From an uncultured Burkholderiales bacterium (GTDB lineage Bacteria > Pseudomonadota > Gammaproteobacteria > Burkholderiales > JALYOK01), in assembly GCA_964488915.1 (NCBI GenBank), contig CAZAWU010000001.1, positions 2,749 through 66,748 on the forward strand: a stretch of DNA of 64,000 bases. Reading direction: 5' to 3'. A program made the position numbers and the translations under genes. This document shows, piece by piece, positions 13,250-49,674 of the stretch. The first letter of the stretch is position 1; every line of letters begins with the position of its first letter. The notes beneath the pieces are model-generated. The model ran no database searches. It had not been told where the DNA came from and worked only from the letters and a program-made list of their open reading frames with translations.

Positions 13250-13352
13250 CAGCACTACGCACAGGGTATGGCCGAACCCTGATTTTTTCCCCGTTTTTGC
13301 TTGCTCGGGCCGAATTCACCACTGCGCCTCTTTATACTTTCTTCTCCGAAGC

Positions 13353-13730: not shown

Positions 13731-13828
13731 CAGGTGCAGCGTGACGGGTGACGAGTGATGCGATGAGCCTGTCACCCGTCACGCCTAGCCGTCATTGGTC
13801 ATCTCTCATTGCTAACAACCACGACACC

Positions 13829-14722: not shown

Positions 14723-14755
14723 CCCTAGACAATCTCCTCACCATTGATTTACGGG

Positions 14756-15235
14756 TTAATCCTCTCGCCAGTGTCCGGATTTTCCACCTAATTTCTCCAC
14801 CAACCGGACGTTGTCCATGCGCATGCCGCGGTCGACCGCCTTGCACATGTCATAGATGGTAAGCAAGCCGATTTGCACCGCAGTCAGCGCCTCCATCTCG
14901 ACGCCGGTGCGCCCGAACGTCTCGGCGGTGACCTCACAATCGACCGCGTTGGTAGTGGCGTCGATTTCGAACTCCGCGCTCACGCGCGTGAGCGGCAGCG
15001 GGTGACACAGTGGGATCAACTCCGAGGTGCGTTTGGCCGCTTGGATCGCCGCGATGCGCGCCACGCCCAGCACATCGCCCTTCTTCGCGCCGCCGGCTTG
15101 GATCATCGCCAGCGTCGCCGGCTGCATGACGATGCGCCCGCGCGCGCGCGCCACGCGGTGCGTCTCCGCCTTCGCCGCCACGTCCACCATATGCGCTTGT
15201 CCGCGTTCATCGAAGTGCGTGAGCTTATCGTTCAT
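14756..15235 (-). CDS. moaC: Cyclic pyranopterin monophosphate synthase
   Basis: 159 aa. [43 protein letters not shown] and EMEALTAV are canonical MoaC. Confidence 0.95.
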
Positions 15236-16784: not shown

Positions 16785-17173
16785 TGGCGGCAATGCGAAA
16801 CAACGCCACTGCGTCGGCATGGCGCGCGACACTGGCGGGGATGCTCGGCCTGGGCATTGCGGCATGCGCCGGTAACGGCGGCGACGGCAGCGTTAGTGCA
16901 TCGGCTGGGCGCCGCTTGGCGCACGACTGGAGCAAGGGCAACTGTCTCGCATGCCACAAGATTCCAGGAGACGCACAAGCCATCACGTCTGCGGACATCG
17001 GCCCGCCGTTGCAGGATATCAAAGCCCGCTTCCCGAATCGCGACAAACTGCGTGCGCAAATCTGGGATGCGCGTGGCGTCAACCCCGATACCGTGATGCC
17101 GCCGTTCGGGGCCGCGCACATCTTGACGGAAAACGAAATTGATAAAATCGTCGACTATCTTTACATCTTCTAG
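16784..17173 (+). CDS. soxX: Sulfur-oxidation c-type cytochrome SoxX
   Basis: 129 aa. Single heme motif CLACH in GNCLACHKIPG, then MPPFG. Possible lipobox GIAAC. GTG 16784 overlaps the bepA stop by 1 nt (alternative ATG 16793). Confidence 0.8.
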   Translation: MAAMRNNATASAWRATLAGMLGLGIAACAGNGGDGSVSASAGRRLAHDWSKGNCLACHKIPGDAQAITSADIGPPLQDIKARFPNRDKLRAQIWDARGVNPDTVMPPFGAAHILTENEIDKIVDYLYIF

Positions 17174-18041
17174 CGCCACTACAGTGTTCCCATCGCGCCG
17201 CCAATGGCTCGCCACCGGCGCGGCATCCGCCGCGTTGACCCTGTTGCGGCGCGCTCCAGGGCTTAGCGCGCTCGCAGCACCAACTTTTCTGAGCAAGGTC
17301 GCGGCCGCGGATGCGCCAGACTGGAATGCCGCCGCCTTCGACGCACGCAACCTTAGGGACGCGCTGCGCCTGTGGGGCATCGCGGAAGTGCAAGAGACCG
17401 CGGACATCGTGTTCCCGAGCGCCTGGGACACCGCCGAGAATGGGGCGGTCGTGCCATTGGAAGTACGCAGCAATATCCCGGACACGGAATCGATCACTTT
17501 GTTCGCCGACAAAAACCCGCAACCGCTGATTGCGAGTTTCAACTTCTTCAATGGCACCGAGACGTATGTATCGACGCGCGTCAAGCTCGGCGAGACGACG
17601 CTGGTGCGCGCATATGTCAAAGCGGGCGGCAAGCACTATCTGGCAACGAAGCAGATCAAAGTCACCATCGGAGGCTGCGGCGAATACGAAGTCGGCGCGC
17701 CGCCAACGGGCAAGCCTTCGGGCGAGCCGATGCGCACGCGCACGACGCTGCGTGGCGATGTCGCGGAAATCAAGGTCCTGATGAGCCATCCGATGGAGAC
17801 TGGGCGCCGCAAGGATGACAAGGGCAGGCTTATCCCGGCCTATCACATCAAGAACGTCGGCGTCAGCTTGAACGCGCACCCCGTGTTGCAAGCGCAGTGG
17901 GGCACGCCCGTTTCGCGCAATCCCTATCTAGCGGTGCGCGTACGCGGTGCCAAAGCGGGCGACAAAGTGCTGATCGCTTGGATCGACACAGCGGGTGAAA
18001 AGGCGCAGGTCGAAACCGTAGTGGACGTGCCGAAGACGTGA
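17139..18041 (+). CDS. soxYZ: Fused SoxY-SoxZ sulfur carrier protein
   Basis: Tat-type signal SRRQWLATGAASAALTLL. The SoxY body ends in KVTIGGCG, normally the C-terminus, but continues in frame (EYEVGAPPTGKPSGEPM) into a SoxZ body (RTRTTLRGDVAEIKVLMSHPMETGRRKD...). The start may be GTG 17184 rather than 17139. Confidence 0.8.
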   Translation: MIKSSTIFTSSSATTVFPSRRQWLATGAASAALTLLRRAPGLSALAAPTFLSKVAAADAPDWNAAAFDARNLRDALRLWGIAEVQETADIVFPSAWDTAENGAVVPLEVRSNIPDTESITLFADKNPQPLIASFNFFNGTETYVSTRVKLGETTLVRAYVKAGGKHYLATKQIKVTIGGCGEYEVGAPPTGKPSGEPMRTRTTLRGDVAEIKVLMSHPMETGRRKDDKGRLIPAYHIKNVGVSLNAHPVLQAQWGTPVSRNPYLAVRVRGAKAGDKVLIAWIDTAGEKAQVETVVDVPKT

Positions 18042-18883
18042 GGGGGATTGCAGCCGCGTCGCGCGCTCTGGCTGCGCTCCTGGCGGCGCTGATATCTACT
18101 GCGGAGGTCCACGCCGATCCTGCCGCGCAGCGCGCTGAGGTGATCGAGTTCTTTCAGCGTGCGTTTCCACAGTTTCCCCTAGACGACTACGCCCACGGAT
18201 CACTGATGTTTCGCCCGGAGGCGCGCAAGCAGTTCGAGAGCATTATGGAGTTTCCGCCGTTTCTGAGCACAATCGATCGCGGCAAGCAGATGTGGGATCG
18301 GCCCTTCGCCAATGGTAAGCGCCTGGCCGACTGCTTCGAAGACGGCGGACGCGGCGCGGCCGCCAAGTTCCCGCGCTACGATGCGGCACGCGGACAAGTG
18401 GTGACGTTTGAGCTGGCCGTGAACGATTGCTTGCGCACCAATGGCGAGCGGCCGCTGGCGTTTGCCGACATGAACACGATAGGTGCGCTGATGTCTTACG
18501 CGCGTACGCTTTCTGACGGCGCACGCCTCGATGTGCGCGCGGATACTCCGGAAGCGCAAGCGAAGTTGGACGCGGGCAAAGCAATCTACTATCAGCGACG
18601 CGGTCAAATGAATCTTGCCTGCTCTAACTGTCATATCGGCCTGGCCGGGCGCTACATGCGCGATGAGATTATTTCGCCCGTCGTCGGCCAAGCAACACAC
18701 TTCCCGGTGTTTCGCCGCGGCGGGGAAGAGTTGCTTACGGTGCAGGCCTACTTCCGGCGCTGCTTCACGCAGATTCGCGCGACCATACCGGCACTCGGCA
18801 GCGAGACGATGAACAATCTCGAGTACTACCACGCTTACTTGAGCAACGGATTGCCGATGCGCGCTTCGGTGTATCGAAAGTGA
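18038..18883 (+). CDS. soxA: Sulfur-oxidation cytochrome SoxA (single-heme type)
   Basis: 281 aa. Heme motif CSNCH (MNLACSNCHIGLAG) and a candidate distal Cys in AYFRRCFTQIR. No N-terminal second CxxCH. Start overlaps the soxYZ stop. Confidence 0.85.
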   Translation: MRGIAAASRALAALLAALISTAEVHADPAAQRAEVIEFFQRAFPQFPLDDYAHGSLMFRPEARKQFESIMEFPPFLSTIDRGKQMWDRPFANGKRLADCFEDGGRGAAAKFPRYDAARGQVVTFELAVNDCLRTNGERPLAFADMNTIGALMSYARTLSDGARLDVRADTPEAQAKLDAGKAIYYQRRGQMNLACSNCHIGLAGRYMRDEIISPVVGQATHFPVFRRGGEELLTVQAYFRRCFTQIRATIPALGSETMNNLEYYHAYLSNGLPMRASVYRK

Positions 18884-20853: not shown

Positions 20854-22073
20854 TGCTGTTTACCGTAGCCGGCGAAGCGCTGCGCGCGTTGCGGGCGAAC
20901 CGGTTGCGCACCGCCCTGAGCATGCTCGGCATGGTGATCGGCGTCGGCGCCGTGGTGCTCATGCTCGGCATCGGGCAAGGCGCGCGCGCGAACGTCACGC
21001 GCGCCGTGTCCTCGATGGGTAGCAACGTGTTGATCGTCATGTCCGGCAACATGACCACCGGCGGCGTGCGGCTCGGACAAGGCGCCTCGCCGACGCTTAC
21101 GCTCGCGGACGCGGAGGCGGTGGGTAAGCTTGCATCCATCCTGCTGGTGAGCCCCACATCCAACAACAGCGCGCAGGTCAGCTTCGGCAATGCCAACTGG
21201 GCTACGAGCGTCGTGGGGGCCACGCTCAATTTCTTCGCCATCCGCGCCTGGACCGCCGAGCGCGGCGACTTCTTCACGGATGCGGATGTTCGCAATGCGG
21301 CGCAAGTCGCGGTGCTGGGTCAAACCGTGGTCAAGAACCTGTTCGGAGCCGAGGAGCCCGTCGGCAAGACCATTTCGATCAAAGGCAAACCGTTCGTTGT
21401 GCTCGGCACACTCGAGCCCAAAGGGCAGAGCTTGGACGGTCGCGATCAGGACGACACGATCGTTATCCCACTCTCTACTGCACAAGGCAAAGTCTTCGGC
21501 AATCCGTTTCCCGGCACCGTGCGCCTCATGATGGCGCAAGCGCGCTCGGGCGACGAGCTGCAAGCGGCGGAAGAGGAAATCACGCAACTGCTGCGCGAAC
21601 GTCACCGTTTGAGCGGCGACGCCGACAACGACTTCACCGTGCGAAATCTGACCAGCTACGCCGAAACGGCGGCGATGGCGGCACGCACGCTCACGCTGAT
21701 GCTCGGCGCGGTTGGATCGATCGCTCTCTTGGTCGGCGGCATCGGCATCATGAACATCATGTTGGTGTCTGTCACGGAGCGCACGCGCGAGATCGGCCTG
21801 CGAGTGGCCGTTGGCGCTCGGCAAGGGCAAATCATGTTGCAGTTTCTAGTCGAAGCAACTGTGATCTGTATTATCGGTGGCTTGCTCGGCGTGCTGCTCG
21901 GAGGCGTCGCTGCTTGGTTCCTGGCAAGCAGCCTGTCGATGGAAGTTGAATTGACTGCTAGCTCAGCTTTGGTTGCGTTCGCGTTCGCCGCCGGCAGCGG
22001 ATTGCTGTTTGGGTTGTTTCCCGCGCTGCGAGCAGCTCGACTCAATCCCGTTGACGCGCTTCGGTATGAGTAA
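20850..22073 (+). CDS. ABC transporter permease (MacB-type FtsX fold)
   Basis: 407 aa. N-terminal TM, large periplasmic domain, C-terminal FtsX-like TMs (IALLVGGIGIMNIMLVSVTERTREIGLRVAVGA). 4-nt overlap with the ATPase gene. Confidence 0.9.
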
Positions 22074-22140
22074 GCCTAATCACGTCAAACGTTCGGGTGC
22101 ATCCCGGCATCGCCCGCTGCGGCCGACCAGTATGCATAGC

Positions 22141-22176
22141 CTAGAAAAACAAAAGCCCCTCGGGGGAGCGAGGGGC
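22141..22176. terminator. Hairpin terminator between the convergent ABC permease and pilA genes (T-tract on the minus-strand reading)
   Basis: gcccctcg (22155-22162) / cgaggggc (22169-22176). On the minus strand the stem is followed by TTTTGTTTTT (plus 22141-22154). Probably bidirectional. Confidence 0.55.
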
Positions 22177-22300
22177 GTGAGGGCCTTTGATTATTGTTAG
22201 AGGTGGCAAACAGTTTCTTTTTGAGCCTTCCGCCGAAGACGCTGGCAAGAAGACTCACCTGTAAAAGCAAAGTGCATGCCTGATATTCAGCAGCGACGCG

Positions 22301-22332
22301 CACAAACGAAAACGCCTCCCGAAGGAGGCGTT
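22301..22332 (-). terminator. Rho-independent terminator of pilA
   Basis: aacgcctcc-cgaa-ggaggcgtt (22311-22332), 18 nt after the pilA stop, followed on the minus strand by UUCGUUUGUG. Confidence 0.7.
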
Positions 22333-22349
22333 CGTGGTTCTGGACTAGA

Positions 22350-22772
22350 TTAGCAGCCCTTGGGTTTCAACTTCGCCGGAATGCTGAAGCCCGTGCAACC
22401 CCAGTTGTTGTTCGCTGTGTCGAACGTGTAAACGACGTTGAGGCCTGCGATCTGATCGTTGACGCCCGCGTTCTTGAACGTAGCCGTCACGGTACAGGTG
22501 GTACCGGCAACAGCGAAGGCCAAGCCCTGAACGTACTTGCCCGTGGTAACAGCACCACCCGGAGCAACGCAAGTCGCGGCAGTCAAACCGCCATCGGAGA
22601 TCGCGTCGACCAAGCCGGTTTTCAGACCGTCGATCATCGTGGGTGCTTCGGAAACTTGCGCCTTAGCCGTGTAGTCTTGATAGGCGGGGATCGCGATCGC
22701 CGCCAAGATGCCGATAATCGCAACAACGATCATCAACTCGATTAGGGTGAAGCCTTTTTGCATTGCCTTCAT
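22350..22772 (-). CDS. pilA: Type IV major pilin
   Basis: Trimmed to ATG 22772 (AGGAG RBS). The class III leader plus conserved N-terminus [34 protein letters not shown] is diagnostic. C-terminal Cys pair (C...C at the end). Confidence 0.9.
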
Positions 22773-22853
22773 GTAGTGCTCCTGTGTTATGGTTACCAAA
22801 GAAATTTGAATCTGCTCGCGTCACGCTATCAATTGCGCGTCTGTAGCTGGTAG

Positions 22854-22869
22854 AGCAATCGTTGTGCCA
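22854..22869 (-). promoter_or_regulatory. Sigma-54 (RpoN) -24/-12 promoter upstream of pilA
   Basis: The minus strand reads TGGCACAACGATTGCT. This is an exact fit to TGGCAC-N5-TTGCW with correct GG-N10-GC spacing, about 80 nt upstream of the pilA ATG. Confidence 0.7.
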
Positions 22870-23191
22870 AGCTCCGCGCGCTGCACCAAGCGATTTCGCA
22901 CTGTTGCCACGAGTTGGTTTTTTTAAGAACTACATCAAAGAGTTATCGAATTACCCGGTGCAACGCGAATGGAACTCGTCGGTTTTCCGATCGCATAACC
23001 GGAAATGAGTCCCTCTGCGAGATGTTTGCGCTGCCTGGCTGGCTCCTCTCGAGTCGGCGAAATGTGACCATCAACGTCAGCCGCGAGCACACCGAACGGT
23101 TTGGGAAACTAGCAAGCAAGACTGATCAGCGACCGCACGAAATACGGCCAGAAACACTGTCAGCGGTGTAATTTGCTGAGGACGAGAACCG

Positions 23192-25543
23192 CTATTTGAT
23201 GCAGACCGCGCGCACCTGCGCCAGATCCGTAATACCCAGCAGAATTTTCTCGATACCATCCTGCTTGAGAGTGCGCATACCCTCGCTTAAAGCGGTTATG
23301 AGCATATCCGCGACGCGGGCGCGTCCTTGGATGTCTTTCTTGACGGCATCGGTGCCCACCAACAACTCGTGCAAACCGACACGGCCCTTGTAGCCAGTGT
23401 CGCCACAAGCCTCACATCCTACCGGCTCGTAGATCGTGATCTCGCCTTTCTGATTGCCGAACTGCTTCACCCAATCTTCGTAGATGCGCTTGTAGCCAGC
23501 CTGGGGATCCTTCTTCCACTCCGGCAGATTTGTTAGCTCTTCGCAGTACTCTGTCATGAGACGTTTGATCTCATCGGGCGTAGCGGTATGCGGCTTCTTG
23601 CACTTGGAACACAACCGCTTGGTCAAACGCTGCGCGAGCACCCCGAGCAAAGCGTCCGCAAAGTTGAACGGGTCCATGCCCATGTCCAACAAGCGAATGA
23701 TGCTCTCAGGCGCGCTGTTCGTATGCAGAGTCGAAAGAACCAAGTGGCCAGTGAGCGACGCCTCGATGCCGATGGAGACAGTCTCTTTGTCGCGCATCTC
23801 GCCGACCATGATGATATCGGGATCAGCCCGCAGGAATGCCCGCATGGCTGTGGCAAAGTTGAGGCCGGCCTTGTTGTTCATCTGAACTTGCCGCAGGCCC
23901 TTCTGCGTGATCTCTACAGGATCCTCTGCAGTCCATATCTTCGTCTCGGAATCGTTCAGGGCTGCAAGCACAGAGTGCAACGTCGTCGTCTTGCCGGAAC
24001 CGGTCGGCCCACAGACAAAGAACGCGCCGTAAGGCTTCGAGATGATGTTCTTTAGGTTCTCCACGTTACCCTTGGACAACCCGATCTTATCCAATGGCAG
24101 CGGCTCGCCCGAGGCGAGAATACGCATCACGACATCCTCTAACCCGCCGGCCGTTGGGATAGTCGCCACGCGCAGTTCGATATCCAGAGGCGCGAACTTC
24201 TTGAACTTGATCTTGCCGTCCTGAGGCTTGCGCCGCTCCGCGATGTCCAAATCGCACATGATCTTCAGACGCGTAACCAGGGGACTACGATAGCTCGCCG
24301 GAACCTCAATGTAGTTCACCAGGCTGCCGTCGCGGCGGAAACGGATCAGCGTCTTGTTCTTCCCCGGATAGGGTTCGATGTGTATGTCTGACGCGCTTTG
24401 GTTGTACGCGTCATAGATCATCTTGTTGACGAACTTGACCAGCTCGTTCTCGGAGGCCGCCGACAATTCCTCTTGGCTGACGGCGATAATTTCATCGGAA
24501 TCGCCCTCTTCCATCGAAGATAAGAGATCGCCGATACTGCCGCTGCCCATCGAATCGCCATAAAACTGCTCGACGGTCTGATTGAACTCAATACCACTGG
24601 TTACGCGATAGATGATCCTGTGCTTCGGGAAAACGTGCTTCGCGATCTGCGAGCTGCGCAAGCGCTCGGGATCGGGAGTCACAACAATCAAGCCGTCCTT
24701 TGAATCATCCAACGGCAACCACTGATTATTCTCCGCGTATTCGCGCTTGATGGTCTTAAGTAGATCGATCGGCTTGACGCGATCGGCCTTGAATGGTTCG
24801 TAGTCGACGCCAAAGAACGATGCCAGCGACTGTCCGATCGCGCTCGGCTTAACTTGAAATTCTTCGACGAGAATTTCCTCGATATCTTTGCCTTTGCGCC
24901 TCGCAGTACGAGTGGCCAACTCCAACTCGCCCCCAGAAATCACCCCGTCGGTAATCAACTGGTCATACTTCGTGCGTAGCTTGTTGGTCGACTGACGCGA
25001 GCGCAAGGCCATAGCCAGGCCCTTGCACAACTCTTGCGCCAAGTCGACCGAAGCCTGAGAAAATGGTACGCCGTCGCGCGTATTGATGAGTTGAACGCAG
25101 CCAAGCAGCAGCTTGGGATCATCAGGATCAAGCACTGGCGCAACCAGCATCTGCTTTGTGCGATAGCCGGTGCGCTTGTCGACCTCCTTCAGAAAACTCA
25201 AGCGTGGGCTATGGCGCTTGAGTTCCGCCTCATCGTAGACGTCCGCGATATGCAACGTGCGCTTATGAAACGCAGCGAAGCCGGCGATGCTGGCCTCGGT
25301 AATCGGTAACTTGAGATCCCGAAAAGAAGTCAGCCCGGTCTTCACTCGCGCCACGAGCGCGAGCCGGTCCTCGCTGAGTGCGTAAACTGTGATTCGGTCC
25401 GCTCGAAAGAGATCGCAAATTTCTTGGCTAAGCTCGTTGACTTTCTCGTCAAAGCTTCGAGCTGCTTGAATCTTGGCAAGAATATCCGGCAAAGTGCCTG
25501 AGCCTTCGGCGCTACCAAATTCCTTTTCTGCAAGAGCACTCAT
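23192..25543 (-). CDS. GspE/PilB-family secretion ATPase with N-terminal GAF domain
   Basis: 783 aa. GAF-like N-terminus (ITVYALSEDRLALVARVK...LHIADVYD...KQMLVAPVLD...GCVQLIN), T2SSE_N-like segment, Walker A GPTGSGKTT, Asp/His boxes, and a tetracysteine cluster CSKC...CEACGDTGYKGRVGLHELL. Confidence 0.9.
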   Translation of the reverse strand: MSALAEKEFGSAEGSGTLPDILAKIQAARSFDEKVNELSQEICDLFRADRITVYALSEDRLALVARVKTGLTSFRDLKLPITEASIAGFAAFHKRTLHIADVYDEAELKRHSPRLSFLKEVDKRTGYRTKQMLVAPVLDPDDPKLLLGCVQLINTRDGVPFSQASVDLAQELCKGLAMALRSRQSTNKLRTKYDQLITDGVISGGELELATRTARRKGKDIEEILVEEFQVKPSAIGQSLASFFGVDYEPFKADRVKPIDLLKTIKREYAENNQWLPLDDSKDGLIVVTPDPERLRSSQIAKHVFPKHRIIYRVTSGIEFNQTVEQFYGDSMGSGSIGDLLSSMEEGDSDEIIAVSQEELSAASENELVKFVNKMIYDAYNQSASDIHIEPYPGKNKTLIRFRRDGSLVNYIEVPASYRSPLVTRLKIMCDLDIAERRKPQDGKIKFKKFAPLDIELRVATIPTAGGLEDVVMRILASGEPLPLDKIGLSKGNVENLKNIISKPYGAFFVCGPTGSGKTTTLHSVLAALNDSETKIWTAEDPVEITQKGLRQVQMNNKAGLNFATAMRAFLRADPDIIMVGEMRDKETVSIGIEASLTGHLVLSTLHTNSAPESIIRLLDMGMDPFNFADALLGVLAQRLTKRLCSKCKKPHTATPDEIKRLMTEYCEELTNLPEWKKDPQAGYKRIYEDWVKQFGNQKGEITIYEPVGCEACGDTGYKGRVGLHELLVGTDAVKKDIQGRARVADMLITALSEGMRTLKQDGIEKILLGITDLAQVRAVCIK

Positions 25544-25638
25544 CTCGAAGACTCTAAAAATTCAAGCCAGAGCAGAATATCACACGCTTGCAGCACGCGA
25601 CTTGGTCGATACACATTGTCACAGAGCGCAAACACCGA

Positions 25639-26397
25639 CTAAAACTCGAATACCTGACCGTTAGTTAACGGTCGCAATGCGCGAGAACTTTCGCGCAGTT
25701 CCTGCATGATCGTACTGGTTTCACCCGGTTTCATGTGAGTGATGTAGATCTCCGGATTGCCCGCCAGTTTGCCCAGTTCCGGTACGAGCAGCGCCGGACA
25801 ATAGTGCTTCGAAGCCACGGCGATCGAACGGTCACGGTTCGGAAAGGCCGATTCCACAATCAGATAACGGGCGTTTGCCTGAGAATTAAAGTACTCCCAT
25901 AGCGAATCGTTCACAGTTGTGTCGCCGCTAAATATCAAGCTGGCTGCACCGCTATCCAGGTGGTAACCGACCGTGGGCACGACGTGATTGGCTGCAATCG
26001 GCGTGATCTGCCGCCCTTCCAATTGCACCGTTTGCCCTACCATGATTGGCTCGAAGGCTAGATAGGGTTGGCCAGGCCGGGGTATACGTGTGAAATCTGG
26101 CCAGACGCGCCAATTGAACACATGCTCCTGCAACGTTCGGATAGTCGCTTCCAAAGCGTACACACGCAGGGGCTGGCGCCGCAGATGCCCAATGGAATCG
26201 ATGAGCGCGGGCAGCAAGGCAATATGGTCCATGTGCGAATGCGTGATGAACACATGCTTCAGTTCGCACATGCGCCGCAGGGAAAGTGATCCCAAGCCGC
26301 TGCCCGCATCAATGAGCACGTCGTCGTCGAGCAAGAAACAGGTCGTGTGATCGTCGCCGCCAATGCCACCACCGCAACCGAGGACCGTGAGCTTCAC
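25639..26397 (-). CDS. MBL-fold hydrolase resembling class II 3',5'-cyclic-nucleotide phosphodiesterases
   Basis: 252 aa. MKLTVLGCGGG..., HVFITHSHMDHIALLPALIDS (HxHxDH[I]-type signature as in class II PDEs), YITHMKP near the C-terminus. Confidence 0.65.
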   Translation of the reverse strand: MKLTVLGCGGGIGGDDHTTCFLLDDDVLIDAGSGLGSLSLRRMCELKHVFITHSHMDHIALLPALIDSIGHLRRQPLRVYALEATIRTLQEHVFNWRVWPDFTRIPRPGQPYLAFEPIMVGQTVQLEGRQITPIAANHVVPTVGYHLDSGAASLIFSGDTTVNDSLWEYFNSQANARYLIVESAFPNRDRSIAVASKHYCPALLVPELGKLAGNPEIYITHMKPGETSTIMQELRESSRALRPLTNGQVFEF

Positions 26398-26462
26398 GCG
26401 TGCTCTGCCTGCTCGCTACCCGGGGGTCGTCCGGAATCTGACGCAAACGTGAGAACCAGGCG

Positions 26463-27221
26463 CTACGACTTGTAGAAAAACTCCATCTTTACGCCAGCAA
26501 TCTCGATTACATCGTTTTCTTTCAGCGACGCTGCCTGCGCGCCGACCGAAGCACCGTTGACGACCGGAAAACTTGCACCCTCAACGTGCGTAATGAAATA
26601 GCCGTTTGGCCGCTTGGTGATCACTGCAACTTGAACACCGGGCTTGCCGAGCGTCGTGAGAGACTTGGTGAGCTCCAACGTCTTGCCAGCGTTCTGCCCG
26701 TTGAGCACTTGCACCATCCCAACCGCCGACACGATGGGAGCTGTTGCAACCGCGCTGTTCGCTTGCGGTGCACGCACGTTCGAGCCGACCGATGTGCGGC
26801 TCGTCACGGTCGAGCGGGCACCGACCTGTGTGTCGCTCAAGCCGCGCTCAACTACGGCGGGCTGCGGCGCCAGATCGCTGGGCCGGCGCAGCACCATAGT
26901 TCTCTCAAATTCCTCCGCCGTGGTCGACGAAGGAACTTCATTCACATACTTGAGCTTGTGCTTGCCGATTTCAATGACATCGCCGTCTTGCAAAAAATGG
27001 CGCTTGACTGAAGCGCCGTTGACTAGAGTGCCGTTCGTGCTGCCTAGATCCTCCATGAAAGAATCATTCAGGATCGTGATGATGACCGCGTGCTTCCCGC
27101 TGACGGCAAGATTGTCGACCGGAATGTCATTATCAGCCTTGCGGCCAATCGTCACCCGTTCCTTGTCTAGCGGGAATTCGTTTAGTACTTGGCCATCGAG
27201 ACTGAGGATCAACTTCGCCAT
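26463..27221 (-). CDS. Protein with two FHA domains
   Basis: N-terminal FHA (VTIGRKADNDIPVDNLAVSGKHAVI...GSTNGTLVNG...DGDVIEIG), Ser/Thr-rich linker, second degenerate FHA-like domain (LTTLGKPGVQVAVI...VNGASV...ENDVIEIAG). Confidence 0.85.
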   Translation of the reverse strand: MAKLILSLDGQVLNEFPLDKERVTIGRKADNDIPVDNLAVSGKHAVIITILNDSFMEDLGSTNGTLVNGASVKRHFLQDGDVIEIGKHKLKYVNEVPSSTTAEEFERTMVLRRPSDLAPQPAVVERGLSDTQVGARSTVTSRTSVGSNVRAPQANSAVATAPIVSAVGMVQVLNGQNAGKTLELTKSLTTLGKPGVQVAVITKRPNGYFITHVEGASFPVVNGASVGAQAASLKENDVIEIAGVKMEFFYKS

Positions 27222-27230
27222 GAGTGCACC

Positions 27231-28061
27231 CTATCGCTTGAACCAGGACTTGAGCCTGACCAACCAGCTGCGCGTAATCTGAAAATCATTCAACACTTTC
27301 ACGAGAACCACGGAAATGTTGTCTCGCCCACCGCTATCGTTGGCTGCCTGAACTAAGTGCTGCGCCGCCAACTGAACATTGGATTGCAAAGTGAGTAGCG
27401 TAAGCCGGATCTCCTCGTCGTCGATCATGTCGTTCAGCCCATCCGAACACAGCAAATATACGTCACCGGGTATCACGTCATGCGTGTGGACCTCCGGCTC
27501 GACCATTGGATCCACACCGAGCGCGCGTGTTACCAAGTTCTTGTTGTGCGACAAACGCGCTTCTTCTTTGGAAATCACACCCTGATCGATCTGCTCCTGC
27601 AACAAAGAATGATCACGCGTCAACTGATCGAGGTGTTCTCCGCGCAGGCGATATAGGCGCGAATCGCCCACATGTGCGACTGTCAACAGATTATCGAAGA
27701 AAAGGCCGACCACCAACGTCGTACCCATGCCCGAGTATTCGGGGGTATGTTGCGCCGCTTGGTGCACGGCACTATTTGCACGGGCAACATGTTGGCGGAT
27801 CAAGGATGCCGCTATCTCCTGCGCCTGCTCACGATCCATTTGCGACAGGCGGCATGTCTGCCAGTCCTGCTCGATGCCGTCGGCGATCAAATCAGTGGCC
27901 ATGCCGCTCGCAACGTCACCGGCGTTGTAACCCCCCATTCCGTCGGCCAGCAAAACCAGCCCAGCCTCCCGCCGCTCCGCAACGTAGTCTTCGTTGCGCT
28001 TTCGCAAACGCCCAGGATCGGTCAAGCTAGTGATCTGCAGTGCTTCGATAATCTGCATCAT
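27231..28061 (-). CDS. PP2C-family Ser/Thr protein phosphatase
   Basis: RKRNEDY, LLADGMGGYNAGDVAS, TTLVV, AHVGDSRLY, LLCSDGLNDM and GGRDNISVV are the full PP2C/Stp motif set. Confidence 0.9.
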   Translation of the reverse strand: MMQIIEALQITSLTDPGRLRKRNEDYVAERREAGLVLLADGMGGYNAGDVASGMATDLIADGIEQDWQTCRLSQMDREQAQEIAASLIRQHVARANSAVHQAAQHTPEYSGMGTTLVVGLFFDNLLTVAHVGDSRLYRLRGEHLDQLTRDHSLLQEQIDQGVISKEEARLSHNKNLVTRALGVDPMVEPEVHTHDVIPGDVYLLCSDGLNDMIDDEEIRLTLLTLQSNVQLAAQHLVQAANDSGGRDNISVVLVKVLNDFQITRSWLVRLKSWFKR

Positions 28062-28397
28062 TAAGCAAATCTGTTTATTTCAGCAACGCGCATTCTACTC
28101 GTCAGCAGCCCCAGGCATTCATTGCAATGAAATAGTGCTGTTGGCAACATCGACAATGCGCGATGTCCGCGCCAATCACCCAGCAAACAGCGCTCCTAAA
28201 GTTGCGGTCGCGCCTCATCAACAGCGCAAAACTGCCTGAATTCTTTAGAAAAGTCAATCGAGCTCCCCGTCCGAAGCGGTTCTGGCCTCGGAATTCTCCG
28301 GTCCGGCTATGGTAGACTGAACTGGTCGACGGTGACGAACTGCAGCCGTTGACAAACCACGTCCGTTGTCTTTTTGCCATAAGCAAGAATCGCGCCC

Positions 28398-31058
28398 ATG
28401 GACATTCTCCCCGACATCGATCCACAAGAAACCCGGGAATGGTTAGACGCGCTCGACGCCGTACTTGAGCATGAAGGTCCGGAGCGCGCGCATTTCCTGC
28501 TCGAAAAACTCATCGAGAAGGCGCGCCGTTCGGGGGCCCATCTTCCCTACCGCGCGACGACTGCTTACCTGAATACCATTCCTCCGCACAAAGAGGAACG
28601 CTCTCCCGGCAACCACGAGTTAGAACACAGAATTCGTTCCTACGTTCGCTGGAATGCGCTTGCGATGGTCTTGCGAGCCAATAAGCATACCAACGTGGGC
28701 GGGCACATCGCGAGCTTTGCTTCCGCCGCTACTCTTTACGACGTCGGATACAACCACTTCTGGCACGCACCTTCGGCAGAATCGCTCGGTGACCTGATTT
28801 ATTTTCAAGGCCACTCGGCGCCGGGCATGTACGCCCGCGCGTTCATGCTCGGACGCCTAACTGAGGACCAACTTGACAGATTTCGTCAGGAAGTTGACGG
28901 CAAAGGGCTATCTTCCTACCCACACCCGTGGCTCATGCCGAACTTTTGGCAGTTTCCAACTGTTTCCATGGGGCTCGGGCCGATCACCGCGATCTACCAA
29001 GCGCGCTTCATGCGTTACCTGCAGGATCGCGGCCTGGCCAATACTGAAGGTCGCAAGGTGTGGGCGTTCATGGGCGACGGCGAGATGGACGAGCCGGAGT
29101 CGCTCGGCTGCATCTCGCTCGCCGGACGTGAACGACTAGATAATCTAGTTTTCGTCGTCAACTGCAACCTGCAGCGTTTGGACGGTCCCGTACGCGGCAA
29201 CGGCAAGATCATCCAAGAGTTGGAGGGCGATTTCCGTGGCGCGGGGTGGAATGTTGTCAAACTCATCTGGGGCTCCTACTGGGATCCGTTGATCGCCAAA
29301 GACCGCAGCGGCTTGCTGCTCAAGCGTATGGAAGAAGCGGTCGACGGGGAATATCAGACATTCAAGTCCAAAGACGGCGCATACGTACGTAAGCATTTTT
29401 TCGGCAAGTACCCAGAACTTCTGGAACTCGTCGCCAACATGACGGATGACGACATTTGGCGCCTCAACCGCGGCGGACACGATCCGCACAAGATCTACGC
29501 CGCCTATGCCGCCGCCGTGAAACACACCGGGCAGCCCACCGTCATTCTTGCTAAGACGATCAAGGGTTACGGCATGGGCGAGTCCGGTGAAGCTCAGAAC
29601 ATCACCCATCAGCAGAAGAAGATGGGCACGACTTCGCTCAAGGCGTTCCGTGACCGCTTCGGCGTGCCCGTACCGGACGACAAACTCGAAGAGATGCCGT
29701 ACATCAATTTCTCGAAGGATTCGCCGGAACTGAAATACATGCGTGAGCGGCGCCTGGCGCTCGGCGGTTACCTGCCTCAGCGGCGCGTCGACGCACCCGT
29801 GCACAAGGTTCCTGCTCTAGGCGCTTTTGACGCCTTGCTCAAGAGCAGCGACGAGCGCGAACTTTCGACCACGATGGCGTTCGTGCGCATTTTAAGCACG
29901 CTCCTGCGCGACAAAGAAATCGGCAAATACATTGTGCCGATCGTACCGGACGAATCGCGCACCTTCGGCATGGAAGGCTTGTTCCGCCAACTCGGTATCT
30001 ACTCCTCGGTCGGCCAGCTTTACGAGCCGGAAGATTCCGACGAACTCATGTATTACCGCGAGGCCAAGACCGGCCAGATGCTGCAGGAAGGCATCAACGA
30101 AGCCGGTGGCATGTCGTCGTGGATCGCGGCCGCCACTGCGTACAGCACGCACGGCGTCTGCATGATGCCGTTCTTCATTTTCTATTCGATGTTCGGCTTC
30201 CAGCGTGTGGGTGATCTCGTCTGGGCTGCGGGGGACTGCCAAGCGCGCGGCTTTCTGCTCGGCGCCACCGCCGGGCGCACCACGCTCAACGGCGAAGGTC
30301 TGCAGCATCAAGACGGCCAGAGCCAGTTGCACGCCTCCTTCATCCCAAACTGTGTCTCCTACGACCCGACCTTCGCGTACGAGCTCGCCGTCATAATGCA
30401 AGATGGCATGCGCCGCATGTACGAAAAGCAGGAGAACGTCTTCTATTACATCACCTTGATGAACGAGAACTACACGCACCCGGCATTGCCGGTGGGCGCG
30501 GAAGCGAACATTCTCAAGGGACTGTATCTGCTGCGTACGGCGGACGACAAGAAGGCGAAAGCTCCACGCGTGCAGCTCATGGGCTGCGGCACCATTTTGC
30601 GCGAAGTGATCGCCGCGGCGGATCTGTTGCGCAATGACTTCGGCGTCGAAGCGGACTTGTGGAGCGCGACCAGCTTCAACGAACTGCGCCGCGACGGCTT
30701 GAGTGCGCAGCGCTGGAATCTGCTGCATCCGAGCGAAAAACCGCGCCTCTCGCACGTCGAACAATGTTTGAGCAAACGCAAAGGGCCGGTCATCGCCGCC
30801 ACCGACTACATGCGCAGCTTCGCCGATCAAATCCGCGCCTTCGTCCCGCAACGCTACGTCGTGCTTGGCACCGACGGTTACGGACGTTCCGATACGCGTG
30901 AGCAGCTGCGCAGTTTTTTCGAAGTCGACCGCCGCTATGTCACGGTCGCCGCGCTCAAAGCGCTCGCCGACGATGGGACCATCGACGCCAAAGTGGTGGT
31001 GCAAGCGATCAAGAAGTACGGTATCGACAGTGAGCGCGTCGAACCATGGAAGAGCTGA
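28398..31058 (+). CDS. aceE: Pyruvate dehydrogenase E1 component (homodimeric type)
   Basis: 886 aa. DIDPQETREWLDALDAV..., GGHIASFASAATLY and GDGEMDEPES are canonical AceE. Confidence 0.95.
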   Translation: MDILPDIDPQETREWLDALDAVLEHEGPERAHFLLEKLIEKARRSGAHLPYRATTAYLNTIPPHKEERSPGNHELEHRIRSYVRWNALAMVLRANKHTNVGGHIASFASAATLYDVGYNHFWHAPSAESLGDLIYFQGHSAPGMYARAFMLGRLTEDQLDRFRQEVDGKGLSSYPHPWLMPNFWQFPTVSMGLGPITAIYQARFMRYLQDRGLANTEGRKVWAFMGDGEMDEPESLGCISLAGRERLDNLVFVVNCNLQRLDGPVRGNGKIIQELEGDFRGAGWNVVKLIWGSYWDPLIAKDRSGLLLKRMEEAVDGEYQTFKSKDGAYVRKHFFGKYPELLELVANMTDDDIWRLNRGGHDPHKIYAAYAAAVKHTGQPTVILAKTIKGYGMGESGEAQNITHQQKKMGTTSLKAFRDRFGVPVPDDKLEEMPYINFSKDSPELKYMRERRLALGGYLPQRRVDAPVHKVPALGAFDALLKSSDERELSTTMAFVRILSTLLRDKEIGKYIVPIVPDESRTFGMEGLFRQLGIYSSVGQLYEPEDSDELMYYREAKTGQMLQEGINEAGGMSSWIAAATAYSTHGVCMMPFFIFYSMFGFQRVGDLVWAAGDCQARGFLLGATAGRTTLNGEGLQHQDGQSQLHASFIPNCVSYDPTFAYELAVIMQDGMRRMYEKQENVFYYITLMNENYTHPALPVGAEANILKGLYLLRTADDKKAKAPRVQLMGCGTILREVIAAADLLRNDFGVEADLWSATSFNELRRDGLSAQRWNLLHPSEKPRLSHVEQCLSKRKGPVIAATDYMRSFADQIRAFVPQRYVVLGTDGYGRSDTREQLRSFFEVDRRYVTVAALKALADDGTIDAKVVVQAIKKYGIDSERVEPWKS

Positions 31059-31128
31059 TACTAAAGATAGTATCAACTCAAGAATAAGATTCACATTTAT
31101 TTTCCATATTTTACTATAGGGGGTAACC

Positions 31129-32463
31129 TTGGCCACGCTGCAAGAAGTGCTCGTGCCCGACATCGGTGATTTCAAAGAAGTCGAAGTGATCGAGGTCCTG
31201 GTCAAACCCGGCGACAGCATCAAGAAAGAAGATTCCCTGATCGCTTTGGAGTCCGACAAAGCCACCATGGAAGTGCCCTCGCCTGTCGCGGGCACGGTAA
31301 AAGAGCTGAAGATTAAAGTCGGCGACAAGGTGTCACAGGGATCGATCGTGCTGGTGGTGGAAGCCACCAGCGACGCGTCCGCCAAAACCGCAACCGCAAC
31401 CGCATCGGCACCGGCGCCTGCGGCAGCGAAGCCTGCCGCGCCCACAACGCCGTCCGCGCCGGCACCGTCGCTAAATATTCCGCCCCCGCCACCACCGACT
31501 TTCGCACCTGCCTCGCCGGCATTTACCGCGTCGTTGGAGCGCTCGTTGAGCAAAGCGCACGCGAGCCCCTCGGTGCGCGCCTTCGCGCGCGAACTCGGTG
31601 TCGATTTAGGGCGCGTGACGGGCAGCGGACCGAAGGGACGCATTCTCAAAGAGGACATCCAGCAATTCGTTAAGAGCGAGCTGGCCAGTCCGGGCAAAGC
31701 CGCCGGCGGAGGCGGCGGTCTGGGCTTTAACCTACCGCCCGCACCGGCGGTCGATTTCGCCAAGTTCGGACCAATCGAAACCAAGCCGCTGTCGCGCATC
31801 AAGAAAATCTCCGGGGCGAACCTGCACCGCAACTGGCTTTCGATCCCCCACATCACGCAGCACGAAGAGGCCGATATCACGGAGCTGGAAGCGTTCCGTC
31901 AAGCGCAGAGCGATGCTGCGGCGAAAAGTGGCGTCAAGCTGACACTGCTGGCTTTCATCCTGAAAGGATGCGTCGCGGCGCTCAAGCGTCACCCGGAATT
32001 CAACGCCTCACTCGCTGCTGACGGCGAGAATCTTGTGCTCAAGAACTACTACCACCTGGGTTTTGCCTGCGACACGCCTGACGGACTGGTGGTACCAGTC
32101 ATCCGCGACGTCGATCAGAAAGGCATATTCCAAATCGCCAAGGAGCTCGCTGAGCTGAGCGCCAAAGCGCGCGAGAAAAAACTCTCCCCCAGCGACATGC
32201 AGGGCGGAACCTTCAGCGTCTCGAGCCTGGGCGGCATCGGCGGCACGCAATTCACCCCGATCATCAACGCGCCGGAAGTCGCCATCCTGGGCGCCAGCCG
32301 CTCGGCGATGAAACCCGTGTGGCAGAACGGTCAGTGGGTGCCGCGCATGATACTGCCCCTGTCACTCTCGTACGACCACCGCGTGATCGACGGTGCTTTG
32401 GGCGCGCGCTTCATCACTTACTTGAGCGGCGTGCTCGCGGACATGCGCCGCGCCATGCTCTAA
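31129..32463 (+). CDS. aceF: Dihydrolipoyllysine-residue acetyltransferase (PDH E2), single lipoyl domain
   Basis: Lipoyl motif [13 protein letters not shown], Ala/Pro linkers, E3-binding domain (ASPSVRAFARELGVDL), catalytic SYDHRVIDGA. TTG start at 31129. Confidence 0.9.
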   Translation: MATLQEVLVPDIGDFKEVEVIEVLVKPGDSIKKEDSLIALESDKATMEVPSPVAGTVKELKIKVGDKVSQGSIVLVVEATSDASAKTATATASAPAPAAAKPAAPTTPSAPAPSLNIPPPPPPTFAPASPAFTASLERSLSKAHASPSVRAFARELGVDLGRVTGSGPKGRILKEDIQQFVKSELASPGKAAGGGGGLGFNLPPAPAVDFAKFGPIETKPLSRIKKISGANLHRNWLSIPHITQHEEADITELEAFRQAQSDAAAKSGVKLTLLAFILKGCVAALKRHPEFNASLAADGENLVLKNYYHLGFACDTPDGLVVPVIRDVDQKGIFQIAKELAELSAKAREKKLSPSDMQGGTFSVSSLGGIGGTQFTPIINAPEVAILGASRSAMKPVWQNGQWVPRMILPLSLSYDHRVIDGALGARFITYLSGVLADMRRAML

Positions 32464-32466
32464 CCC

Positions 32467-34269
32467 ATGAGCAATCTCATCGAAGTGCGCGTGCCGGACA
32501 TCGGCGACTTCAAAGACGTCGAAGTCATCGAAGTGCTGGTCAAATCGGGCGACGTGATCAAACCGGAAGATTCGCTTATCGCATTGGAATCCGACAAGGC
32601 GACTATGGAAGTCCCGGCACCGGCCGGCGGCACCGTGAAGGACTTGAAGATCAAGGTCGGCGACAAGGTTTCGCAAGGCTCGCTTATCCTGATGCTGGAA
32701 GCGGGAGCGGCGGCTACGCCGAGCGCATTGCGCGCGCCAGCACCCCCAACTGCTGCTTCAGCGGCTGCGCCGACAGCTCCAACGAGCGCCGCCACGCCGC
32801 CGAAACAAACTTCGGGGGCCGATATCACCACTGAGGTCGTCGTGCTCGGCGCCGGGCCGGGCGGCTATACCGCCGCGTTTCGCGCGGCCGATCTCGGCAA
32901 GCAAGTTACGCTAATTGAGCGCTACGCGGCGCTCGGCGGCGTTTGTCTCAATGTCGGCTGTATTCCATCCAAGGCGTTGCTCCACGTCGCGAAAGTGCTC
33001 ACCGAGGCGGAAGTCGCCGCCGAACACGGCGTCGAATTCGGCAAACCCAAGATCGATTTCGGCAAAGTGCAAGGGTGGAAAACTTCCGTCGTCGAAAAGC
33101 ACACCAAAGGACTCACCGGGCTTGCCAAGCAGCGCAAGATCACTGTGGTTCACGGCACGGCGACGTTTGTGAACTCACATCAGGTACAAGTGCAAACCAG
33201 CGAAGGCAACCGGACGATCGGCTTCCAGCACGCCATCATCGCCGCCGGTTCGCAAGCCTTTAAGCTACCCGGTTTGCCGTGGGGCGATGCGCGCTTGCTC
33301 GACTCCACCGATGCGCTCGCGCTGAAAGTAATTCCTAAACGCATGCTCATCATCGGCGGCGGCATCATCGGCTTGGAAATGGCCACGGTTTACGATGCAC
33401 TCGGTAGCAAGATCAGCGTCGTGGAGTTGATGGACAATCTCATTCCGGGCTGCGACCCCGATCTGGTGCGCCCTCTCGCGCGCCGCATCGGCAAACGCTA
33501 CGAGCAGATCCTGCTCAAAACCAAGGTCACCAAAATCGAAGCTAAGCCGGAAGGCCTACTCGCCCACTTTGAAGGCGCCCAGGCCTCGGATGCGGCGCCC
33601 CAACCGCAACTGTTCGATGCCGTGCTGGTTGCGGTCGGTCGTCGGCCTAACGGCAAGGCGATCGGCGCCGAAGCCGCCGGCGTAAAGGTCGACGAACGCG
33701 GTTACATCCCGGTCGACAAGCAGCAGCGCACCAACATCGGCCATATCTTTGCCATCGGCGATATCGTCGGCGAGCCGATGCTGGCGCACAAGGCCACACA
33801 CGAAGCGAAAGTCGCCGCGGAAGTCATCGCTGGGCACAAGGCTGCGTTTGACGCCCGAGCGATTCCCAACGTTGCCTATACCGATCCCGAAGTAGCCTGG
33901 ATGGGAATGAGCGAAACCGAAGCCAAGAAGCGCGCAACGCAAATCGAAGTGGCCGTGTTTCCTTGGACCGCCAGCGGACGCGCGTCCGGCCAAGCGCGCA
34001 ATGAGGGTGTGACCAAGCTGATCTTCGAGGCGGGCACGCGGCGCCTGCTGGGCGCTGGGATGGTCGGACCAAACGCCGGCGAGCTTATCGCGGAAGCGGT
34101 GTTAGCCCTGGAAATGGGCGCCGACGCCGCGGACTTGAGTTTGACGATTCACCCACACCCGACGTTGTCGGAAACGCTGGGTTTGGCGGCCGAAATGGCC
34201 GAGGGCAGCATTACCGATTTGCTCCCCGCAAAGAAAACCGCGCTTGAATCCACGTTCAAGCGCGGTTGA
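32467..34269 (+). CDS. lpdA: Dihydrolipoyl dehydrogenase (E3) with N-terminal lipoyl domain
   Basis: 600 aa. N-terminal lipoyl domain ([13 protein letters not shown]), then GAGPGGY, redox-active [14 protein letters not shown]-terminal HPHPTLSE. Confidence 0.9.
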
Positions 34270-47512: not shown

Positions 47513-47516
47513 TTCC

Positions 47517-49664: not shown

Positions 49665-49674
49665 ACGTATCTGT

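Follow-up and report, generated by a model that had tools for sequence, protein, structure and literature searches.

To our knowledge, direct second-messenger control of pilus motors is known only for cyclic diguanylate (c-di-GMP), and phosphothreonine control through forkhead-associated (FHA) domains has been established for a bacterial nanomachine mainly in type VI secretion. Here we describe a gene cluster in which both kinds of control may meet at one pilus motor. It consists of five co-oriented minus-strand open reading frames (ORFs) at positions 22350-28061 of a 64,000-nt stretch from an uncultured Burkholderiales bacterium (assembly GCA_964488915.1, contig CAZAWU010000001.1, positions 2,749 to 66,748; this whole stretch is called the window). 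The ORFs encode a PP2C phosphatase, an FHA adaptor, an enzyme of the metallo-beta-lactamase (MBL) fold, an ATPase with a GAF domain in front of its MshEN and T2SSE domains, and a type IV pilin. We think it rather probable that a conserved signalling module of betaproteobacteria, centred on an orphan PilB-type ATPase and the adjacent type IVa pilin, is present here in pared-down form.

The MshE/PilB-type ATPases MshE of Vibrio cholerae and PilB of Myxococcus xanthus are controlled by c-di-GMP via the MshEN domain (PMC5013675, PMC5544727), and FimX-PilB of Pseudomonas aeruginosa is a further c-di-GMP system acting on a pilus ATPase (PMC5595344). The ATPase of the window has the same MshEN fold and T2SSE core, and here too a second messenger is predicted to act on the N-terminal region of an extension ATPase. 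Unlike in MshE and PilB, the c-di-GMP motif of this family is, by alignment, destroyed, a GAF domain of the type that binds cyclic nucleoside monophosphates (cNMPs) is fused in front, and a dedicated cyclase and a probable phosphodiesterase are encoded alongside. Cyclic AMP (cAMP) is known to reach type IV pili via transcription factors, Vfr in P. aeruginosa and Sycrp1 in Synechocystis. This transcriptional link is covered in part in PMC7690835. The module described here would likewise tie cAMP to type IV pilus production, but its predicted receptor is the motor itself and not a CRP-family protein. With the GAF domains of CyaB1/CyaB2, PDE2/5/6/10 and Lcd1, that of the ATPase shares the TGY/FRT phosphate-contact segment, and it has Gln at the CyaB2-type position; however, the output of those tandem-GAF enzymes is a cyclase, phosphodiesterase or diguanylate cyclase, whereas here a single GAF domain is joined to a secretion ATPase of the hexameric type.

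The threonine phosphorylation pathway of type VI secretion comprises the kinase PpkA, the PP2C phosphatase PppA and Fha1 (PMC5995506). Relatives of the window's cluster also encode a membrane Hanks-type kinase, a PP2C and an FHA protein together with a nanomachine (all three in 44 of 57 loci). In contrast to the PpkA/PppA/Fha1 pathway, the predicted target is a PilB-family motor, the adaptor has a second, degenerate FHA-like domain, and the window has PP2C and FHA only, without a kinase. An FHA protein and Ser/Thr kinases that control a type IV filament are likewise found in the Arn system, which acts on archaellum gene expression. In Sulfolobus, ArnA (the FHA protein) and ArnB, with the kinases ArnC and ArnD, control the archaellum (PMC4307647, PMC10117864); unlike the module, this system is archaeal and has neither a cyclic-nucleotide arm nor a sensor-motor fusion. 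As in GarA and OdhI, the FHA domain of the adaptor may bind a phosphothreonine of its own polypeptide (T108), whereas architecture and targets differ from those of GarA/OdhI and the equivalog score is far below cut-off. The searchable literature yielded neither a GAF-fused PilB-type ATPase nor a cluster like this one, in line with an earlier annotation made from the letters of the window alone (the sequence-only reading), which knew of no characterised example.

The five genes were delimited from the ORF listing and by reading the sequence. The gaps between successive genes, from PP2C via FHA and MBL to the ATPase and then the pilin, are 9, 65, 95 and ~420 nt. The features of the cluster are the following.

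27231-28061, minus strand: PP2C-type Ser/Thr phosphatase, 276 aa (ORF listing, Pfam, NCBIfam)
26463-27221, minus strand: FHA adaptor, 252 aa (ORF listing, Pfam)
25639-26397, minus strand: MBL-fold metallohydrolase, 252 aa (ORF listing, Pfam)
23192-25543, minus strand: GAF-MshEN-T2SSE ATPase, PilB-like, 783 aa (ORF listing, Pfam)
24989-25471, minus strand: GAF domain within the ATPase, residues ~25-185 (phmmer, Foldseek, Pfam)
24539-24976, minus strand: MshEN-fold domain within the ATPase, residues ~190-335 (Pfam, alignment to 5htl)
22855-22869, minus strand: sigma-54 type -24/-12 element TGGCACAACGATTGC (exact motif search)
22350-22772, minus strand: type IVa major-pilin-like prepilin (Pfam, sequence reading)
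22155-22333, minus strand: two terminator-like hairpins, 22310-22333 and 22155-22176 (consensus scan)

ORF listing, Pfam and NCBIfam recovered the coordinates and named domains of the five closely spaced minus-strand genes as the sequence-only reading had them. That reading also held the expected kinase and the canonical pilus partners to be missing from the window, and this was borne out. Pfam scans of the long ORFs, together with tblastn using the relatives' kinase, cyclase, cNMP-binding and GAF-HD proteins as queries, found no kinase, cyclase, pilC/pilD or pilMNOPQ within the 64 kb; by Pfam, no T2SSF or peptidase A24 domain was seen among the window ORFs, nor any type VI secretion genes in the window.

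The evidence for a conserved module comes from related genomes. An alignment of the GAF and MshEN domains of 11 family members was scanned against one genome per species. At least 599 stretches matched, at least 540 of them encoding a relative of the GAF-ATPase, and 80 loci were fetched. Nine module proteins were mapped on these loci by tblastn, and the counts of upstream genes are from the 57 loci whose upstream flank is 8.6 kb or longer. In a Rhodocyclaceae metagenome-assembled genome (locus L001) a nine-gene string surrounds the GAF-ATPase; by Pfam, the genes encode in order CHASE2-Pkinase, PP2C, FHA, CHASE2-Guanylate_cyc, MBL/PDEase_II, cNMP_binding-Rhodanese, the GAF-ATPase, GAF-HD (HD_5) and the pilin. 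PP2C lies upstream in 55 of the 57 loci, FHA in 54, and MBL directly upstream of the ATPase in 54; the three keep their position beside the ATPase whatever the outer flanking genes. Because the order PP2C-FHA-MBL-ATPase recurs in 54-55 of 57 species loci, it is more than chance, and the grouping of these four genes by the sequence-only reading extends to other genomes.

The kinase is present in 44 of the 57 loci, the cyclase in 45 and the cNMP-binding/rhodanese protein in 32; downstream, the GAF-HD-GYP gene is found in 65 of 67 loci. Kinase and cyclase occur together in 43 loci, the kinase without the cyclase in 1, the cyclase without the kinase in 2 and neither in 11; the two are gained or lost together. 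The Hanks-type kinase that had been expected to pair with PP2C and FHA is encoded inside the relatives' clusters as the CHASE2-Pkinase protein. Since the GAF-HD protein of the relatives carries HD and HHExxDGxGYP motifs, it can be assigned as an HD-GYP enzyme. The relatives' cyclase has Lys in KY[IM]GD in all matches and Thr in AYT[VA]MGD in 39/63, where that motif was found. We take these two residues to be the specificity pair of class IIIb adenylate cyclases, and on this ground the messenger is probably cAMP. The cNMP-binding protein of L001 (8902-9963, plus strand), absent from the window, has a rhodanese domain with the active-site loop CQSGRRS intact, so that a sulfurtransferase or phosphatase-like fold is joined to a receptor for cyclic nucleotides.

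The module could also be read as a Pycsar-like anti-phage system based on cyclic nucleotides, made up of a cyclase, effectors activated by a nucleotide and a phosphodiesterase for self-protection. PADLOC PycC models match the relatives' cyclase (up to 104 bits), kinase-containing defence models match the kinase, and MBL phosphodiesterases such as Apyc1 are part of that arms race. However, the PADLOC matches are to generic folds, and ATPase, MBL and FHA have no meaningful defence-model match; the cyclase has the adenylate-cyclase Lys and Thr residues and an extracytoplasmic CHASE2 sensor; the chromosomal neighbourhood is fixed across species; and the output side of the module consists of genes for a pilus motor and a pilin. 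We regard a defence function as very improbable and rejected it, PADLOC having given only generic kinase and cyclase fold matches. An Apyc1 (anti-Pycsar) identity of the MBL enzyme, at which precomputed matches hinted, was also rejected (Pfam 11 bits, cut-off 50).

Compared with the nine-gene string, the window has a reduced module, without the kinase, the cyclase, the cNMP-binding/rhodanese protein and the GAF-HD-GYP enzyme. All members of the window's clade are of the reduced type and adjoin aceE. One of them (L085, 69% identity) has exactly the five-gene layout of the window, with the pilin kept and no GAF-HD-GYP gene. In another (L082, with a 93% identical ATPase) an IS66-family element (12621-15104, minus strand) stands exactly in the place that promoter (sigma-54) and pilin occupy in the window, and a third (L084) has kept GAF-HD-GYP and has no pilin. 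Within this clade, gene content at the downstream end of the module has been labile in evolution. A tblastn search of the 420-nt spacer between the ATPase and the pilin of the window found no remnant of a GAF-HD-GYP gene. Reduced forms occur also in L002-L004, L008, Pelomicrobium, Usitatibacter and other lineages. In a comparison of the window's genes with those of L082, dN is 0.045-0.15 with dS saturated, and from this we conclude that the reduced set is maintained by strong purifying selection.

The ATPase at the centre of the module matches Pfam T2SSE (381.5 bits), MshEN (42.7) and GAF (36.2). Among solved structures it is closest to PilB of Myxococcus (3jc8, 370 bits), PilF of Thermus and PilB of Geobacter; GspE scores lower, at 316 bits, and PilT, BfpD and CpaF far below PilB/PilF. 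The catalytic motifs are intact: Walker A GPTGSGKTT at 512, the Asp box EDPVE at 540, Walker B DPDIIMVGEMRD at 574 and the His box TGHLVLSTLHTN at 598. Intact, too, are both CxxC motifs (CSKC at 645, CEAC at 710). Against the nearest relative dN/dS is 0.014. Homologues number at least in the thousands; the best 120 all have the GAF-MshEN-T2SSE architecture, with 64-93% identity, and those among them that have a source name are mostly labelled Burkholderiales, Rhodocyclaceae, Gallionella, Sulfuricella and Sulfuricellaceae.

It could be that this is simply the host's ordinary PilB with an extra N-terminal domain, that pilC and pilD lie elsewhere, and that PP2C, FHA and MBL act on other targets. 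Its nearest neighbours of solved structure are indeed genuine PilB/PilF extension motors, the ATPase adjoins a major pilin that has a sigma-54 promoter, as in many pilA loci, and the comparison covered the related loci with flanks of ±10 kb. However, the ATPase scores 481.9 bits with the PilB equivalog TIGR02538, below the curated cut-off of 675.65 (and 457.7 with the GspE equivalog TIGR02533, cut-off 630.25). In canonical loci, pilB usually adjoins pilC and pilD. A tblastn search with E. coli HofC (E ≤ 1e-5) of 87 sources, the 86 loci and the window, found no PilC/HofC-like platform gene within ±10 kb in any of the loci nor in the window, the sensitivity being limited by the divergence of the query. 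PP2C, FHA and MBL, moreover, hold their place beside the ATPase regardless of the outer flanks, as counted above. On the question, raised in the sequence-only reading, whether the ATPase is a canonical PilB beside pilCD, these results speak against it within the flanks searched, and we consider an ordinary PilB unlikely. By its motifs and scores the ATPase is an orphan PilB-like motor, canonical in its catalytic motifs and not canonical in its equivalog score or in having an adjacent platform gene.

Two observations on this ATPase and a neighbour of a relative may be added. The pairs of the tetracysteine element are 61 residues apart, and the extra stretch between them has no alignment to solved PilB, PilF or GspE. 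Both motifs lie within residues 645-713 (window 23405-23611, minus strand); the matches to solved chains break off at ~residue 653-665, and the inter-CxxC stretch, EIKRLMTEYCEEL...WKKDPQAGY...WVKQF, is kept in all 30 of the 30 homologues displayed. In L003, a gene ~4 kb downstream of the GAF-ATPase cluster (16154-18574, plus strand), preceded by a gene for a tetratricopeptide-repeat protein, encodes a Response_reg-MshEN-T2SSE ATPase of 806 aa. That lineage has two differently gated PilB-like ATPases side by side.

The GAF domain of the ATPase is of the cNMP type by homology. In a phmmer search of the Protein Data Bank (PDB) the top match is the cAMP-binding tandem GAF of CyaB2 (1ykd, E 4e-20), followed by the GAF-HD-GYP protein PmGH and then by PDE2A, PDE6C, PDE5 and PDE10A; every significant match at sequence level is a cNMP binder. 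Foldseek with an AlphaFold2 (AF2) model of the domain (mean predicted confidence, pLDDT, 80) returned the same cNMP-binding set and cAMP-bound Lcd1, with the GAF domains of PtsP and phytochromes also among the matches. The segments FxxEVDxxTGYR[TS]KQML and VQxIN are invariant in the alignment of the 11 family members. In our own reading of the alignment, the cGMP contacts of PDE2A, which we take to be S424, I458/A459, T488 and T492, correspond to T52, I86/A87, T125 and T129. The family alignment has T52, I86/A87 and T125 invariant and T or S at 129; the position of PDE2A E512 is Gln, as in CyaB2, and the positions of F438/D439 are K68/T69. The view of this GAF domain as a cNMP-binding fold, taken in the sequence-only reading, agrees with these relationships, and we infer from them that it binds such a ligand.

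The MshEN fold behind the GAF domain is present (cut-off 23.1 bits in Pfam), and the NCBIfam c-di-GMP motif model NF053729 gives 16.4 bits, below its cut-off of 38. The MshEN receptor for c-di-GMP has two tandem 24-residue motifs, RLGxx(L/V/I)(L/V/I)xxG(L/V/I)(L/V/I)xxxxLxxxLxxQ (PMC5013675). A relaxed form of this motif matched 0 of 120 family members, and alignment with the V. cholerae MshEN (5htl) gives R9K, L10Y, deletion of G11, Q32A, R38D, G40E, G47F and Q61F. As far as these alignments go, the c-di-GMP-binding motif is destroyed with the fold kept.

The MBL enzyme matches Lactamase_B_2 (53.4 bits) and PDEase_II (PF02112; 46 bits, cut-off 23.7), the latter with 46-53 bits in three orthologues. 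The metal ligands H53, H55, D57, H58, H138, D159 and H221 are invariant in 19 orthologues. Its best solved match, both by single sequence and by profile (E 6.5e-11), is yeast PDE1 (4ojv), with which it has in common the HVFNxxxWPD stretch specific to class II phosphodiesterases; with NF041851 it scores 46.6 bits, the cut-off being 400. The enzyme is probably a class-II-like cyclic-nucleotide phosphodiesterase.

In the adaptor, the N-terminal FHA domain (PF00498, 72.9 bits, residues 23-86) has R27, S41, H44, S61, T62 and N63 invariant in 41 homologues. The Pro/Ala/Thr-rich linker that follows is variable except for two motifs with an invariant Thr, T108 in FE[KR]TM[VI][LI]R and T131 in DTQ. Ile or Leu at position +3 is a common preference of FHA domains, and T108 has I/L there. 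The C-terminal 85 residues are highly conserved and have no Pfam match; hhalign pairs them in register with the FHA domain at the N-terminus (probability 71%, E 3.7e-5), and they lack the phosphothreonine-binding Arg and Ser. An AF2 model of modest confidence (pLDDT 64) has two all-beta domains, and its Foldseek matches are FHA domains, GarA and OdhI leading. The adaptor appears to consist of one canonical FHA domain and a divergent, degenerate C-terminal FHA-like domain. Of the two FHA domains that had been read from the sequence the first holds as canonical; the second is recognizable in the hhalign comparison and diverges to the point of having lost its phosphothreonine ligands. Equivalog scores are low for both OdhI (57.8 bits, cut-off 200) and TagH/VI_FHA (TIGR03354; 35.9 bits, cut-off 120.25). 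The phosphatase scores above the cut-off of the Stp1/IreP equivalog NF033484 (246.5 against 230 bits) and matches Pfam PP2C_2 and PP2C; compared with that of the relative with the 93% identical ATPase, dN is 0.09 with dS saturated. We take it, from this family membership, as the putative eraser of a phosphothreonine signal.

These parts suggest the following mechanism. In the full module two CHASE2 membrane receptors, a Hanks-type Ser/Thr kinase and a class IIIb adenylate cyclase, would write two marks. cAMP would be read by the ATPase's own N-terminal GAF domain, a functional substitute for the c-di-GMP site of MshEN, and the signal would be reset by the MBL phosphodiesterase encoded immediately upstream of the ATPase; where the module is complete, cAMP may have two more readers, the GAF-HD-GYP enzyme and the cNMP-binding protein of CAP type. 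The canonical FHA domain would recognise the phosphothreonine mark, most likely on T108 in the adaptor's own linker, and PP2C would erase it, the degenerate FHA-like domain being a candidate docking surface on the motor. Once permitted, the ATPase would engage a platform protein encoded elsewhere and polymerise the neighbouring pilin, whose transcription would be gated separately by sigma-54. The window would have lost the writers and retained the readers and erasers. Because readers and erasers are under purifying selection while kinase and cyclase are absent from the window, the writers presumably act in trans, with the signals coming from elsewhere in the genome. Inferred in this scheme are the ligand cAMP, cNMP hydrolysis by the MBL enzyme, the site of phosphorylation, the direction in which regulation works and an output in pilus extension. 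The integration of a cyclic-nucleotide and a Ser/Thr phosphorylation signal by the motor, as first proposed from the sequence, gains support from the kinase, the cyclase and the two further cNMP-type receptors in the relatives' clusters.

A more specific version of this mechanism, which we put forward tentatively and hold to have somewhat less than an even chance, is that the module is a coincidence detector. It would fire a dedicated, alternative extension motor for type IV pili only when the cell's own state coincides with an extracellular cue, sensed by a pair of CHASE2 receptors of which one makes cAMP and the other phosphorylates threonine. The motor would itself be the first cAMP receptor among the secretion-superfamily ATPases and would be licensed by FHA; the full form would be tied to c-di-GMP turnover via the cAMP-sensing GAF-HD-GYP enzyme, and the window's lineage would have outsourced its writers to other loci.

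Several points weigh against the reading of the cluster as a signalling module around the motor. The roles of its members in ligand binding, phosphodiester hydrolysis, phosphorylation and piliation are predictions. With kinase and cyclase missing from the window, both inputs are hypothetical for the host organism. The degenerate second domain of the adaptor is a caveat for the phosphothreonine arm. Two distant GAF-ATPases (35-40% N-terminal identity) stand alone without regulators, from which it follows that the regulatory neighbourhood is specific to the betaproteobacterial clade. For the GAF domain, nucleotide specificity cannot be read from the sequence, with K68/T69 at the base-specificity pair. 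For the MBL enzyme, the PDEase_II match is local (residues 46-104 around HSHMDH, profile positions 83-143 of 340), and in the PDB profile search RNase Z (E 9.9e-11) and Cas14 (E 9.2e-11) are almost equal to PDE1, so that the assignment as a phosphodiesterase is only marginally better than RNase Z-like or beta-CASP assignments. The class II phosphodiesterase signature named in the sequence-only reading stands as far as the above-threshold PDEase_II match and the best match to PDE1 go, and its specificity is limited by these two facts.

The near-equal MBL matches would fit a different picture, with a GAF domain that senses a metabolite or a partner protein and an MBL enzyme that acts as an RNase Z-like nuclease outside signalling. 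GAF is a versatile fold, as the structural matches to PtsP and phytochromes illustrate, and the reduced clusters have no cyclase. This picture has, in our estimate, a small probability, given that all significant sequence-level matches of the GAF domain are to cNMP binders, that 45/57 species encode a class III cyclase and 32/57 a CAP-type cNMP-binding protein, and that the HVFNxxxWPD stretch is shared specifically with class II phosphodiesterases.

A last point against the signalling-module reading concerns the flanking genes. In the window aceE-aceF-lpd (28398-34269, plus strand) are divergent from the cluster, as they are in 9 loci (L008, L013, L051, L077, L080 and L082-L085), and sucCD lies upstream of the module in 13 loci (L001, L003, L010 and others). 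These 22 loci with aceE or sucCD flanks leave room for a metabolic link, namely that PP2C and FHA form a GarA/OdhI-like switch on 2-oxoacid dehydrogenases or the tricarboxylic acid cycle and lie near pilus genes by ancestry; GarA and OdhI are, after all, the best structural matches of the FHA domain. Yet the OdhI equivalog falls far short of its cut-off (see above), the adaptor has no N-terminal ETTS tail and has an extra C-terminal pseudo-FHA domain, and the linkage to the ATPase (54/57) is far tighter than that to aceE or sucCD (22/~85). We consider a metabolic switch quite improbable. That the module adjoins genes of central metabolism unusually often could be chance or a trace of ancient synteny; ppdD-hofB-hofC of E. 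coli K-12, which encode pilin, ATPase and platform, are likewise only 5.5 kb from aceE. Each of the four rival explanations has some support, and none explains the tight linkage of all parts to the ATPase.

For the signalling module around the motor, the adjacent pilin would be the output. It matches Pfam Pilin (54.9 bits) and N_methyl (39.1 bits), both above their cut-offs. The most plausible start is the ATG at 22772, behind AGGAG, whereas the ORF tool lists a TTG at 22799. The prepilin has a short leader, MKAMQKG, a mature Phe1, Glu5, a hydrophobic N-terminal helix and a C-terminal Cys pair, as type IVa pilins do. Transcription of the pilin appears to have its own promoter: TGGCAC-N5-TTGC has one exact match in both strands of the window (expectation for the whole window, 0.35), which lies at the sigma-54 element listed above, ~85 nt upstream of the pilin ATG, so that the sigma-54 promoter seen by the sequence-only reading before a type IV major pilin is the only exact consensus in the window. 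A sigma-70 promoter scan gave nothing in the cluster region, and no cognate sigma-54 enhancer-binding protein was identified within the window. Downstream of the pilin, the two hairpins are GC-rich stems followed by T runs and are predicted to end its transcription unit.

Among the related loci, 37 of 56 have a pilin gene after that of the ATPase or of the GAF-HD-GYP enzyme, a lower bound as pilins diverge fast, and the strict sigma-54 motif is found at most 400 nt upstream in 21 of 48 pilin matches. In L001 (14780-16579, plus strand), with equivalents in L002, L004, L014, L027, L030, L042 and L043, the pilin gene is followed by one for a membrane protein of ~600 aa, without a Pfam match and with an N-terminal FxFDD-type motif, and then by glycosyltransferase genes. 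This protein, absent from the window, may glycosylate the pilin.

If confirmed, a motor that carries its own cAMP-type sensor would be a new way of regulating surface motility, adhesion and DNA uptake. The GAF-ATPase relatives in at least 540 species-level genomes include those of iron-, sulfur- and ammonia-oxidising and of denitrifying betaproteobacteria, and the carriers of the module are betaproteobacteria important in groundwater and wastewater. The module is tractable: three of its parts, namely GAF domain, MBL enzyme and adaptor, are small and soluble, and Methyloversatilis, Azospira, Usitatibacter and Pelomicrobium are culturable carriers. Complete genomes with the module include AP021857.1 (Ca. 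Desulfobacillus denitrificans), NZ_CP194331.1 (Ferrigenium straubiae) and OZ242188.1. If the coincidence-detector version is true, the reduced form would mean that a lineage can retain the readers and erasers and leave the writing to other loci.

Elsewhere in the window, the long ORFs scanned with Pfam are housekeeping and transport genes only, and Rfam found three tRNAs only in the window as a whole. The G+C content of 22001-30000, which covers the cluster and the start of aceE, is 0.54-0.57, against ~0.58-0.64 in most of the remaining window; this dip is too small for a genomic island. At 46007-51654 (plus strand) there are two HlyD-family membrane-fusion-like proteins (501 and 715 aa) followed by a SecA-like protein of 708 aa with SecA_DEAD, SecA_PP_bind and P-loop_SecA domains, the last two ORFs overlapping as called. 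The pairing of a short SecA paralog with HlyD-like genes is unusual.

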